From Eledone cirrhosa (lineage: Eukaryota), in the NCBI GenBank assembly GCA_964016885.1, contig OZ024747.1, positions 39,804,001-39,868,000 of the forward strand: 64,000 nucleotides of DNA, given 5' to 3'. Shown in pieces: positions 8,703 to 63,580 of this stretch. A program made the position numbers and the translations under genes. The notes below the pieces were generated by a model. The model had not been told where the DNA came from. It searched no databases and saw only the letters and a program-made list of their open reading frames with translations. Positions within the stretch are counted from its first letter, which is position 1. Every line of letters begins with the position of its first letter.

Positions 8703-8900
8703 AATATCTAATCAAACGATCCTAAAATTTTTTTGTTTTTCTTGTCTGTCACGGGGAGTGGTCAATGATTTGGGGATGACCACAGACAAGAAAAACAACA
8801 ATTTTTGAGGATTGTTTGATTTGATATTTCTACTACCCTACGTTCGAGTACTCTGGTGCGTTATGGTTCACCTGGTTTCTTACCATAATTTTTTTGTTAC
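8703..8900 (+). mobile_element. fold-back short element with family-T 3' tail
   Basis: Imperfect inverted arms 8703-8749 / 8782-8828, then the tail TGGTGCGTTATGGTTCACCTGGTT..TTACCA shared with 40250-40338, 56699-56788 and 62221-62355; ends at CA/TA repeats. Confidence 0.7.
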
Positions 8901-9066
8901 ACACATACACACACACATATATATATATATATATATATATATATATATATATATATATATATATATATATATGCATATATATATATGTATATATATATAT
9001 ATATATATATATATATATATATATATATATATATATATATATATATGTATATATATACATGTATAT

Positions 9067-9165
9067 ACTATCCAAATGGAACCTGGACCGATAAGGTCTG
9101 GTTTATCGGGTATGCCACTATTTATAAAACAAATTTGGTATTTTATATGTTGAGAGCGTACCAAG
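9067..9165 (+). mobile_element. family-X short element, 5' part, between (TA)n tracts
   Basis: CTATCCAAATGGAACC...GAGAGCGTACCAA is the reverse complement of 10386-10482. Confidence 0.8.
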
Positions 9166-9435
9166 TTACATAAATATGTATATATATATATATATATATA
9201 TATATATATATATATATATATATATATATATATATAGAGAGAGAGAGAGAGAGAGAGAGAGAGAGAGAGAGAGAGAGAGAGAGAGAGATTTTGAGTTTAT
9301 GTTGGTTGTATACCAACACCTCAGTATGCAGGCTGGAGCACTCGACGAAGTGTGCAGGTTGGTTTGGTTACTCCGGAGTAATGTAAAATAAAGTTAAATA
9401 AAAAGTCAAATGTTTAAAATTTAGCTTCGTTTATT

Positions 9436-9490
9436 GCTGCTATATATATTTCAGTGACAGCCATCTTTGGCTGTGACCTCTTCAGGCAGT
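9436..9490 (-). ncRNA. type-I hammerhead ribozyme motif
   Basis: Minus strand: ACTGC CTGAAGA GGTC-ACAGCCA..TGGCTGT-CACT GAAA TATATATA GCAGC, then AATAAA; stem I CTGC/GCAG; palindromic stem III. Confidence 0.8.
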
Positions 9491-9667
9491 CCGAATTAGT
9501 GTGGTATAGACAAGTACATATGTTGTTGAGGTGTATAATATTGTCAATACTCTGATATGCCCAGTTCCTAGTTGGGTTGTTATTTCACTGAGGAACTGGA
9601 ATCATATGAATTCAAACAAACGAATTTCAGTGTCAAAGGGCGTGTGTGTATGTGAATGTGTCTGTTG

Positions 9668-10022
9668 ACACCTGGAATATAGCTTAAGAGAAACGACAAT
9701 TATGATAGGCACCCAATATTTGAACTGGTTTATAGAATTCTCTTGGCCATGGTCACTCTAAGTAGAGCTTTAAAGAATTAGCTTTTAAAGAATTTTCCTT
9801 TTCTTTAAATCCATCAACCATGACCGAACCCCAACCATCTTATAGACACCTGAAATATAGGCATTGTTAGCTTAAGAGAAACTTAAAAATAAGGAATAGC
9901 ACACAATTTGAACTTGTTTATAGAATTCTTTCTGCCTTTGTCTCTCTAAATATAAATTATAGCCTTAAAGAATGACCTCCACCCATCCCACTCCCCACCC
10001 TCTCCTACCACCTGAAAATATA
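9668..10022. repeat. diverged ~177-bp tandem duplication
   Basis: GACACCTG..AGCTTAAGAGAAAC..TTTGAACT..TTTATAGAATTCT recurs at 9668 and 9845, with a partial third start near 10009. Confidence 0.65.
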
Positions 10023-10053
10023 TAAATACCACAACATTTATTTTGGACAGCCA

Positions 10054-60726: not shown

Positions 60727-60877
60727 ATATTACATAAGATCCTCAAAAATATTCCTCTACTGTTTATTGGTACTTTTGAAGTAAACACGCACAGATTATT
60801 GTTTTAATCTGTGTTTGTTTGCTTCTAAAGTACCAATAAACAGTAGAGGAATATTTTTGAGGATCTTCTGTGATATT
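60727..60877. repeat. ~150-bp imperfect hairpin
   Basis: AAGATCCTCAAAAATATTCCTCTACTGTTTATTGGTACTTT / AAAGTACCAATAAACAGTAGAGGAATATTTTTGAGGATCTT; pairing continues to a short loop near 60800. Confidence 0.85.
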
Positions 60878-62159
60878 AGAGTAATTTTCTTTAGTTATTC
60901 CGTTGTAGCCATCGTCGGGGTAATGTTGTCAGCTTTGAAAAGCTCACGAGTGAGGTGAACTTGTGTGACATTTGAAATCAGCAGGTAAAGTGCCATAGGT
61001 CAAACGTTTTACCAATACTGTGTCCTATCTAAGATTCGACAATTTCGTGTGTTAAATGAACCAAATGAGTTTATACAGATGTTGACAGTAGTCTTGAAGA
61101 CACCAGATATAATGATGATTCGAATGTCACGGAAGAAGAAAATTTCTCATGCTAAAAATATCATTATTGGAAAGATAATGAAAGAATTGTGAGATAAAAT
61201 CATGAAATCCACGCCAACTTTCAATTAATGATATTATCAATGACTTTGTTGGTGCAGTTGAACAGATCAAAGATAATTCCGCTTTCGCTAATATTAAGGT
61301 TTCAAAAAACAATTCGTTATATAATGATCTTGTCAATGTATGTCTCTTACAAATCAAACCGACGCTTTAATCAATTTTAAATTTTCCATAAACCAATGAT
61401 ATACGCCAACAAACCAAAACAAGTAAATGTATGAAATGGAAGTTATTTTCGATGGTATTAATGATTAACGATCCACTTAAATAAAAGCGATAAATAATAC
61501 ATTTATATGACTGATACTTTGAGATCATAATTCGTAAGTTGGTGGTATATATTTCTATGTCTAACAGTTTATCCAAATGTATGGTAAAACAACATAGAAG
61601 GTTTCGTGTGCGGCTGAGACACTACTAGAAGAGTACCAATAGGTGCACAATGGTGAGTAACATGACTGCTGGAGAGAGCAGCCCATTTCAGACTAATTTT
61701 TTTACTCAATCGAAGTAAATCGGTAAATTTTTATTTCATCTTGTTTACTTTTACCACATACAATTTTATCTGTATCTCTATCTATCTATCTATATCTATA
61801 TCTCTCTCTATATATATATACACGCACACGGTAAACAGTGGCGGCCACGTGTTGTCCCTCTCCGATAAAACTTGTTCACCCTCGAAAAACCCCCAGCTGA
61901 TGGATGCGAAATCCCAAATATAGGGAATATTAAATCAATTCCAAGGTAATTCTATCTCGTGTTACTGTTCTTTACATTTTCCCTACGTCCCTTTACGCTC
62001 TCCACGTCTCTTTCTACGCCTCCTCTTACATCCTCATTACAACCTGATTCTGTTACCCAGAGATTTACCCATCTGCATTGTTGAGGCTTCCAAAACCACC
62101 ATTTTTATTATTCTACAATGCTTCAAGCAAACCGCAGCACTACATATATATATATATAT

Positions 62160-62356
62160 ATAGGAACGAGTAGGACCCCGACGGCTGAGCTCAAGCCGTT
62201 TCGACAGCTAATTCTGGACTAGAATTAGCCGTCGAAACGGCTTGAGCTCAGCTGTGGGGGTCCTACTCGTTCCTATTACCCACTCTACAACACTAAGTAT
62301 TGAGTACTTTGGTGCGTTATAGTCCACCTGGTTCCTTACCACATTTCCTTCGTTAT
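62160..62356 (+). mobile_element. family-T fold-back 3' fragment
   Basis: Inverted arms 62160-62215 / 62221-62276 (3' half of the HHR), then the tail and (TA)n. Confidence 0.85.
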
Positions 62357-62389
62357 ATATATATATATATATATATATATATATACATA

Positions 62390-62710
62390 TACGTTAACCA
62401 TGGTCTTCCTCTTCCAGTGTGTCCATGCAGGGACTCGTACAGGAGCACTGAATGCAATGTCAACTCTGGATGTCGGTGAGCATATCCAGCCAACTTCATT
62501 CTCCTCTGTGTCACTTTTGAGCTGACTTTTGGGAGGCTCCCGTACAGCTCTGAGTTTTTCATCCTCAGTGTATACCAAGGTTAAGGTATGTTGATGCCCC
62601 AAGGACAGACACTGGTCTGTTGGAGACGCAGGACGTGGCAGCGATAATGAGGGACAGAGACCGCTGGAGAGTACTCGTCCATGGATCTCGGGAATTTTAC
62701 TCGCCCTAGA
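62390..62710. mobile_element. RTE LINE 3' fragment with internal inversion
   Basis: Minus: RRMKLAGYAHRH..GRGRPWLTY; plus from about 62575: PRLRYVDA..DTGLLETQDVAAIMRDRDRWR. Confidence 0.7.
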
Positions 62711-62761
62711 GAGATATATACATATATATATATATATATATATATATATATATATATATAT

Positions 62762-63580
62762 ATATGAAAGACGTAAAATAAGAAAATTATAATAGTTAAC
62801 TTACTAAAATTTCACTCCAACTAATTAGTTTCTGAAAGGGAATAAACATGGTTTCCAAATGGAAAGCATGGAGAAGCCGTTTCATCATCAGGAAGTCTGT
62901 TCTTAGCTAAGTTACCAGGCGATGCGTGGACACAGGGAACTTATACAAAAATAATTCAGTGGATGGAAAAAAGCAAGCGTGGACTAAATTCCAAGACATT
63001 GAAAAAATCACTGCCTACCTGGTCGGTGGCAAATTCAAAAGAATCAATCACGTGACATCGAGGTTAATCAGTGAGGAGTGGGGTGTTAAAAAGACACTAG
63101 CCGAGCCATTACTATGAACTATAGTAGCAGTTTTGGCAAATTTTGGCTCAACAAAATAATTTTGAGATAATTATAAAGAATTAGTATATCATTAGTATAT
63201 CGTGATTGATTCTTTTGAATTTGCCACCGACCAAGTAGGCAGTGATTTTTTCAATGTCTTGGAATTTAGTCCACGCTTGCTTTTTTCCATCCACTGAATT
63301 ATTTTTGTATAAGTTCCCTGTGTCCACGCATCGCCTGGTAACTTAGCTGAGAACAGACTTCTTGATGACGAAACGCCTCCTCCATGCTTTCCATTTGGAA
63401 ACCATGTTTATTCCCTTTCAGAAACTAATTAGTTGGAGTGAAATTTTAGTAAGTAAGTTAATTTTTATAATTTTCTTATTTTACGTCTTTCATATAATTG
63501 TTCTGCATCCCCTTGCATTGAACCACAAAGTTACTAAGACAAAACCTATATATTTGCTAGCATAGGTATGCATCTGTATA
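62762..63580. mobile_element. large fold-back element, ~290-bp arms, hammerhead in each arm
   Basis: Arms 62762-63052 / 63201-63496. Minus 62814-62896: ACTTC CTGATGA TGAAA..TTTCA GAAA CTAATTAG TT GGAGT. The right-arm core is TTGATGA. Confidence 0.85.

Follow-up and report, generated by a model that had tools for sequence, protein, structure and literature searches.

Hammerhead ribozymes within (TA)n repeats of Eledone cirrhosa: truncated ends of Penelope-like elements and retrozymes likely copied by a Hydra-clade enzyme

Introduction

What could bring some twenty hammerhead ribozymes together in one short stretch of animal DNA, and which enzyme would have written them there? This question is raised by a window of 64,000 nucleotides (nt) from Eledone cirrhosa (C7:39804001-39868000, within an animal assembly of 3.0 Gb), an AT-rich and microsatellite-dense region. 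An initial annotation had listed about 20 hammerhead motifs there, sorted into about 10 families of short fold-back elements lying in (TA)n runs, and had regarded them as partly non-autonomous ribozyme RNAs moved by Penelope-like elements (PLEs) of the Neptune or Naiad type. Our follow-up makes it probable that the window is a nest of (TA)n insertions of two kinds: truncated 3′ ends of Hydra- and Neptune-type PLEs, and retrozymes likely copied in trans by a Hydra-clade reverse transcriptase (RT)-endonuclease from predicted circular RNAs.

Much of the background to this reading is known already, namely the hammerheads, tails and fold-backs of PLEs, the targeting of (TA)n by the Hydra clade, the retrozymes themselves and the proposal that PLEs mobilise them; truncated PLE ends with hammerheads are also in print. 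The copying of retrozymes by a PLE enzyme on circular RNA has been a proposal since 2020, backed only by co-occurrence and by similarity of the pseudo-long terminal repeats (pLTRs). In this scheme, PLEs have been suggested as the mobilisers and circles as the source of tandem cDNA (PMC7229834; bioRxiv 10.64898/2026.07.22.740005).

A mixture of intact and decayed hammerheads

The window was scanned with a descriptor of the type-I hammerhead (core CUGANGA or UUGAN[GA]A, stem II of at most 110 nt, GAAA, stem III, NUH, stem I) at a score of at least 20, with 60 block-wise dinucleotide shuffles of the same window as a control. Thirteen hits were obtained, versus 0.42 ± 0.61 per shuffle (maximum 2), and 11 of them are sites of the initial annotation, with cores at 9485, 10782, 28916, 52834 and 62891 on the minus strand and at 20087, 23048, 33945, 43824, 57109 and 63362 on the plus strand. 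One more hit, at 49112+, is an additional family (N) absent from that list, and the last one, 28074-, was put aside as a hammerhead candidate and is probably a chance match. The sites 21483-, 47115- and 47326+ show complete folds when read by eye, with a mismatched stem II; the scan missed them.

Read individually, the 23 listed sites comprise 14 complete type-I folds, with core and stems present and self-cleavage predicted at NUH, two minimal hammerheads without stem III (11119- and 40473-), and seven that are decayed, truncated or misplaced. Core substitutions occur at 10054, 35607 and 45165; the U of the cleavage triplet is lost at 44301; 53169 has no GAAA and 53425 no 3′ part; and 19488 is a loop II position, the real core of its family (K, at about 19453) being cut through by 5′ truncation. 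Rfam returned no hammerhead match at gathering score in the window; below threshold, there is one HH9 match (20068-20145) among the 150 of 280 matches listed, and the E-value list is mostly made of microsatellite matches to microRNA models. The original observation is therefore confirmed in part: it is largely real, with intact and damaged motifs in the count of about 20, and the set is a mixture. Its estimate of about 10 families was too low, since comparing the window with itself and searching the genome yields 15 families for these sites.

Non-coding tandem units resembling retrozymes

The genome was searched with every family except D, and 25-30 loci per family were examined with 1.5-kb flanks; as these searches score the best 40 DNA candidates, the loci are samples. 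In family E, the ribozyme comes back every 317 nt; the arrays lie on several chromosomes, are 99-100% identical and reach 4+4 units (head-to-head at locus L340). The tandem period is 314 nt in E2, 529-532 in I, 475 and 561 in N, and 2077 in H, and consecutive head-to-tail units with a type-I hammerhead occur at several loci in E, E2, I, N and H; family J has a period of 417-420 nt, at one locus only. The longest stop-free frames in the tandem units span 46-103 amino acids (aa), and tblastn with intact Hydra and Neptune proteins found no match below E 0.05 in them. Monomers of E, E2, I, N and J measure 314-560 nt and have a GC content of 35-36%, below the 45% limit used for retrozymes, and the circular folds of E, E2 and I are more stable than those of shuffles (z -6.0, -5.1 and -5.5, respectively). 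E and E2 are 80% identical, and their cores differ by a paired change, U3-A8 versus C3-G8. By sequence criteria, E, E2, I, N and, weakly, J would be non-LTR retrozymes, and so would H apart from its size, which exceeds the retrozyme range of about 150-1000 nt and leaves it classed by its working only.

In the window, the family E insertion at 19644..20254 (+) carries a complete U3-A8 hammerhead (core 20087) and has (TA)n on both sides; its inverted arm (monomer positions 49-205) faces, head-to-head, a direct arm of 1.45 units whose end is at monomer position 179. The E2 fold-back at 52631..53324 (-) has a complete C3-G8 core at 52834, and in the opposite arm the decayed motif 53169. Family I forms a fold-back at 62761..63611 (+) with long-stem-II hammerheads at 62891- and 63362+, where the left arm ends at monomer position 147 and the right one at 262. 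Both arms of the H fold-back (46871..47433) are ends of the tandem unit, the tailed arm on the left (47115-) and the short arm on the right (47326+). Family N occupies 48986..49261 (+), with a U3-A8 hammerhead at 49112 in a non-coding monomer of about 475-560 nt. The J copy at 33938..34044 (+) has a U3.G8 core at 33945 in a unit of about 420 nt, and a decayed second copy lies at 10047-10190. A J unit of 1.9 kb on contig C18 was discarded, its periodicity being a segmental tandem duplication of unrelated DNA. The H unit at L339 contains, about 1000-1500 nt after the ribozyme, a GC-richer stretch that is internally duplicated over about 260 nt; an Rfam search of this unit gave no match.

Two reciprocal ends within (TA)n repeats

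A (TA)4 lies at most 270 nt downstream of 23 of the 25 inventory cores versus 31% in the background, three of those 23 cores counting through the ribozyme's own TATATATA loop. In eight families, 148 of 203 copies, counted after the removal of 7 duplicate loci, end within 10 nt of a (TA)4, versus 829 of 8400 flank control positions (9.9%). The adjacency to (TA)n claimed at the outset is thus clearly above chance.

Every non-Neptune family has two 3′ ends, one short and one with a tail of 26-170 nt, and tandem monomers combine variable 5′ breakpoints with these two fixed 3′ ends. An inverted partial copy is present in 111 of the 203 copies, again in eight families. Among these fold-backs, 92 pair a short with a long end, 3 are short/short, 1 is long/long and 15 could be classed at one end only in part or not at all; although in the direct arm some queries were biased towards one end, both orders were found (43 and 49). 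Family I shows 15 short/long fold-backs, no same-end and 5 unclassed ones (n=20), family E 7, 1 and 1 (n=9), and the Hydra family L, in 53 mined pairs, 33, 0 and 20. The Neptune family C, queried with a sequence that contained the end, stops at one site in 30 loci out of 30; no inverted arm was found at the ribozyme end in these loci, one of which has an inverted match far upstream, and its 24 mined ends revealed neither a second cluster nor pairs. The layout with an inverted partial copy is therefore common and not universal; in the 30 Neptune-C copies, no inverted copy extends to the ribozyme end. The hairpin tail of the same layout is present, but equals the optional tail already known in PLEs.

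At 17 of the 20 start sites listed, in the copies used, the template runs on with TA or more (TA, TAT or TATA), with end positions that were placed by hand and are ambiguous by the overlap itself. The exceptions are the short end of G and the long end of E, together with the long end of H and the short end of E2 in the copies used. This continuation suggests that the nicked repeat may pair with the RNA. Behind the short end, 8 of 13 families carry a GAG(T/C)(A/G)C motif, those being the Hydra families B, L and M and families A, G, H, J and E2; it is absent in F, K, E, I and N.

Variants private to a locus

Across 13 loci and 61 segments of family E, four variants recur within a locus. All four are present in every covering segment (3/3, 2/2, 4/4 and 9/9; 18/18 in total), three of them in both orientations, and each is absent from the 12 other loci. 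The E insertion of the window is one of these loci, and locus L083 of family I follows the same locus-wide pattern. No variant confined to only some of several units was found. Private variants in all units are predicted by the repeated copying of one monomer-length molecule from two primers, and those of E would fit rolling-circle copying of one RNA, with a homogeneous source array as the alternative.

Coding families and the candidate helper enzyme

Seven families (B, M, K, L, F, C and D), which cover 12 of the 23 sites, continue upstream into RT/GIY-YIG frames, and on the evidence of these frames are ordinary truncated ends of coding PLEs. What the initial annotation saw as short and partly non-autonomous ribozyme RNAs is at these 12 sites the end of a coding PLE, so that the ground on which that annotation would itself have given up its reading applies to them. 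The description fits E, E2, I, N and H, and probably also J, which are tandem, non-coding and were not seen to extend into a PLE open reading frame (ORF). A GIY-YIG frame lies about 1.2 kb upstream of family B in L003 and L013; M has the same type of upstream frame in L147 and in three extended loci, K reaches it in L257, and L, which was additionally sampled through an upstream-sequence query and by mining fetched loci, in at least 10 of 25 loci. For family F, L229 is collinear with the window's own ORF remnant to about 24295, and families C and D sit behind Neptune-type frames in the window, C also in L469.

The non-Neptune frames have, at the C terminus, an endonuclease of the GIY-YIG type with a CxCx5C linker. 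The intact frame of family L carries this linker, RWR and DKT; the linker also occurs in B, M and K, and DKT in the window remnant of F. By the motif criteria of PMC8557442 (section 11), B, F, K, L and M would all belong to the Hydra clade. The two remaining families, C and D, show linkers of the Cx2-5CxxC form (CSRLRCNTC and CFRSRCNTC) ahead of a C-terminal GIY-YIG, as well as minimal hammerheads, motifs that point to Neptune, with Nematis still a possible assignment. Every endonuclease remnant in the window lies 3′ of the RT and is followed by the hammerhead, and the Naiad arrangement, with an N-terminal GIY-YIG and no canonical hammerhead, was not seen among the window frames.

The Hydra-type PLEs are units of 3.5 kb, with 3′ untranslated regions (UTRs) of about 1 kb and up to about 2.3 kb in family F. 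In L467 and L468, a single stop-free frame of 784 aa contains the RT followed by a GIY-YIG-type C-terminus (read by eye). A Pfam search did not recognise this family-L protein; the frame has 2216 homologues of similar length. All 150 scored hits of a 240-aa RT query from family L are 99-100% identical, many of them within 784-aa stop-free frames and 3.53-kb tandems such as those of L467 and L468, and a first look at the genome gives 35,912 candidates for Hydra-type RTs, so that the clade appears as a major component of this genome. With near-identical and intact L frames, the genome offers a Hydra enzyme that matches E in youth. Neptune C, whose 3′ ends are 100% identical, is young too, but its scar differs. 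As no sequence link joins E and L, Hydra is supported as a clade, and family L as a candidate only. The non-coding families are then likely to be RNA circles that a Hydra-clade enzyme copied into the genome, rather than the cargo of Neptune or Naiad proteins, as initially proposed: the non-Neptune remnants are of the Hydra type, without an N-terminal endonuclease, and the two-ended fold-back matches Hydra and not the tested Neptune family.

Among the Hydra-type 3′ ends of the window, family B forms a fold-back at 28820..29124 (-, core 28916), with further copies at 9068-9168, 10323-10676, 22956-23153 (core 23048+) and 44211-44572. Family M is a 5′-truncated copy at 9289..9645 (-, core 9485). 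Family K, truncated through its core, lies at 19453..19609 (+), with another piece at 44699-44763; a 10-bp minisatellite array (44763-44974) is immediately upstream of this fragment. The L fold-back at 56701..57209 (+), with a U3-A8 core at 57109, is the 3′ end of the young coding element, and further L pieces are at 8829-8885, 40247-40336 and 62163-62353. Most L copies are truncated inside loop II, without the 5′ half of the core. The decayed F element spans 21350..26344 (-), with ORF remnants at 23823-26339, a long-stem-II hammerhead at 21483 and a long 3′ UTR that holds later insertions; a second remnant is at 41297-41974 and a short inverted copy at 43215-43335. A remnant of a Hydra-type RT thumb (63713..63955, +) lies behind a (TA)n run. 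On the Neptune side, a decayed C element with the minimal hammerhead 11119 extends over 11015..14806 (-), with a short copy at 40358-40594 and a related deleted copy at 45081-46816, and family D is represented by a 3′ part at 53340..54620 (-; GIY-YIG frame 53955-54479, incomplete hammerhead 53455) and by a decayed short copy at 35591-35725.

Families A and G

Family A is an element of about 250 nt that forms a fold-back at 10690..10970 (-), with its core at 10782- and the tail arm on the plus strand. The 25 copies examined all have the same first base, which lies 62 nt ahead of the core; the query started a few bases beyond this fixed 5′ end, which disfavours shorter copies and not longer ones. 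Its ribozyme region resembles that of B (72%, E 8e-5), a family whose 5′ ends also cluster near -80 and about one third of which run on. The fixed end could be a promoter start in the pLTR or an RT stop at the base of a hairpin. Family G, a fold-back at 43785..43945 (+, core 43824), has elsewhere at least 330 nt of non-coding upstream sequence, and neither an ORF nor a tandem was found in 50 loci, some of them overlapping. On the sampled loci, A and G may be ends of coding PLEs or retrozymes. Most G and J copies have their start no more than 30 nt from stem I, and 5′ breakpoints cluster at RNA structures; a splice acceptor as the cause of these clustered ends was dropped, as the junction partners differ between loci.

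Other elements in and around the window

Two decayed long interspersed nuclear elements (LINEs; APE and RT, 75% identical) lie at 5224-7672 (+) and 15245-18899 (-), the latter carrying at 18883-18946 an inverted 64-bp piece of family K (from 19453-19516), with a variant common to both. A Helitron helicase-like remnant is found at 32218-33590 (Pfam Helitron_like_N, E 1e-23). Palindromic short elements without a hammerhead core, either like miniature inverted-repeat transposable elements or other fold-backs, are at 39594-39700, 43530-43651, 20909-21030, 33550-33605 and 60720-60883. An abundant repeat of about 190 bp, similar to short interspersed nuclear elements (SINEs), occurs at 1084-1294, 3255-3444, 4800-5215, 7955-8146 and 48453-48665, and a relative of it is often inserted at TA/AAT sites within H, N and G units. 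Taken together, the SINEs and other repeats of the window have a cephalopod-like appearance. TA-flanked fragments at 28717-28749 and 44587-44651 (CTTTGCTTAAACTTTAATCTG), which have no core in the window and recur in many fetched loci, are probably ends of another PLE-type family. Outside the window, further hammerhead-like families appear in L422 (300-820; a G relative, perfect fold-back) and in L428 (about 1000; a B/A relative).

How the insertions may have arisen

In the mechanism that we favour, tandem transcripts of the non-coding units would self-cleave, probably as dimers or with the help of proteins, and then circularise. The endonuclease would nick both strands within a (TA)n run, and the two 3′-OH ends, probably annealed to short UA motifs, would prime cDNA synthesis at the two start sites. 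Each cDNA would travel round the circle over a variable distance, and the joining of both head-to-head would give (TA)n-arm-arm-(TA)n; solo arms would come from the same reaction with one cDNA retained. More tentatively, and at slightly less than even odds, we suggest that helper and parasite form a live system. An intact enzyme of the Hydra clade would reverse-transcribe one hammerhead circle in a twin target-primed, rolling-circle reaction that begins at two fixed UA sites, would insert head-to-head multimers into (TA)n, and by the same route would also carry units of up to 2 kb and the SINE-like, fixed-start family A.

Several points weigh against this reading. Cleavage, circularisation and transcription of the units are predicted from their sequences, and 8 of 9 dimers of Xenopus retrozymes did not cleave in the experiments of bioRxiv 10.64898/2026.07.22.740005. 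In vitro, a PLE RT began at sites without homology to the DNA that had been cut (PMC11167929). N and J, folded as single old copies, do no better than shuffles (z -1.0 and 0.2). Comparison of E, E2, I, N, J and H with the seven coding ends (five Hydra, two Neptune) revealed no sequence similarity, and therefore gives no parent and places the helper at the level of the clade. Locus-wide variants could also come from a homogeneous source array if this were read as a linear multimer, and in 107 fold-backs the two arms are barely more alike than copies elsewhere (4.6% versus 5.1%; 67 versus 26). Finally, the end pattern was sampled in one Neptune family only (C), and with sampling of the best 40 candidates, long coding versions of A, G and J could be missed.

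The most serious alternative, which we nonetheless find unlikely, keeps the same PLE helper and does without a circle: the templates would be linear transcripts that read through tandem arrays, or monomers would be inserted and then multiplied on the spot by unequal crossing-over. Coding PLEs do form partial tandems without circles, as the 3.53-kb tandems of L illustrate, local amplification has been proposed (bioRxiv 10.64898/2026.07.22.740005), PLE insertion in vitro was unaffected by ribozyme mutants (PMC11167929), and the 2.1-kb unit of H is far above the usual size of retrozyme circles. However, the private variants are common to inverted and direct arms and to all units of a locus, and no two loci have one in common; both arms can be multimeric and yet end at two start sites inside (TA)n; and the folds of E, E2 and I are compact and closed.

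A second alternative, that every family consists of 3′ ends cut off from autonomous PLEs, the long copies having escaped sampling, is true for B, C, D, F, K, L and M, and draws some strength from the resemblance of A to the ribozyme of B and from the upstream sequence of G, where no tandem was seen. As an account of the whole set it is very improbable: past the tail, E, E2, I, N and H re-enter the next ribozyme with no ORF between, which already refutes it there, and the start base common to all 25 A copies argues against it as well. Mobilisation of the non-coding units by Neptune (or Naiad) proteins is hardly credible either, for although Neptune remnants adjoin the units and share their (TA)n ends, and although C is a young family, it has a single end without fold-backs there, the frames of the window showed no Naiad arrangement, and the GAG(T/C)(A/G)C motif unites Hydra ends with five of the other families. 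The first interpretation of this locus is thus partly supported, and the copying of predicted circles by a Hydra-clade enzyme is the reading that we retain.

Comparison with known systems

The candidate retrozymes share with those of other animals their non-coding tandem monomers of about 300-530 nt with a GC content of 35-36%, one type-I hammerhead per unit and the co-existence of PLEs (PMC7229834; bioRxiv 10.64898/2026.07.22.740005). They differ from them in their dispersed (TA)n insertions, the head-to-head multimer fold-backs, the two reciprocal start sites and the locus-wide private variants, and also in their U3-A8 cores and long stems II; the main text of PMC7229834 has no occurrence of "inverted" or "microsatellite". 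The H unit of 2077 nt compares with a largest consensus of 972 bp in the text of bioRxiv 10.64898/2026.07.22.740005. In the open literature, leaving subscription journals, Repbase and Dfam outside its scope, we found no description of reciprocal two-site fold-back insertions of retrozymes, and, supplements of the cited papers being also outside, none of locus-wide private variants or of these families.

The minimal motifs without helix III (here C and D), the U3-A8 core variant, the palindromic loop III and opposite-strand pairs 100-700 bp apart have all been described, the single motifs being interpreted as truncated PLEs (PMC4209133), whereas in several of the present families stem II is extended by insertions of 30-80 nt and the hammerhead lies within a non-coding unit; in the portion of PMC3088659 available there is no statement on U3-A8. 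The non-coding and non-autonomous PLEs of the Chlamys type, MRC1 among them, are also head-to-tail multicopy elements with pLTRs, mobilised by PLEs, but they share 3′ sequence with autonomous families and mostly have no canonical hammerheads (PMC8557442), whereas the seven coding ends include no parent for E, I, N, H and J.

As in the Hydra-clade PLEs of PMC8557442, the coding families combine a C-terminal GIY-YIG, CxCx5C, DKT and an RWK-like motif (RWR) with canonical hammerheads, (TA)n insertion, an inverted 5′-truncated copy and a tail at one end. Differences are the tails (26-170 nt versus 30-40), the 3.5-kb units with 3′ UTRs of about 1 kb, the great abundance and the many identical intact frames; non-coding dependants of the clade are not described in the sections of that article at hand. 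If both the circles and the Hydra-clade enzyme are true, the window offers a testable parasite-and-helper pair for the movement of animal retrozymes: its genomic scars name the clade, two start nucleotides per family and the target repeat, and as the genome contains both the parasite, E, in near-identical copies and a candidate helper, L, with intact frames, the reaction can be rebuilt in vitro. The live-system reading, if true, would prove at the level of insertions the life cycle proposed for retrozymes, and likewise a telomerase-like step of pairing when PLEs prime.

That a tail can be present on one of the inverted arms was already known (PMC3846280; PMC8557442), and in vitro this tail corresponds to the stretch between two RT start sites (PMC11167929). 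The nicking of both strands in AT-rich DNA and the sufficiency of pLTR sequences for mobilisation in trans would likewise be common to our system and to those of PMC11167929 and PMC3846280. However, the TA(TA) continuation suggests a pairing of primer and template here, whereas the Poseidon enzyme showed none (PMC11167929), and the short/long pairing, optional as a tail in PMC11167929 and PMC3846280, is by our counts near-obligate, which constrains how PLEs make inverted structures.

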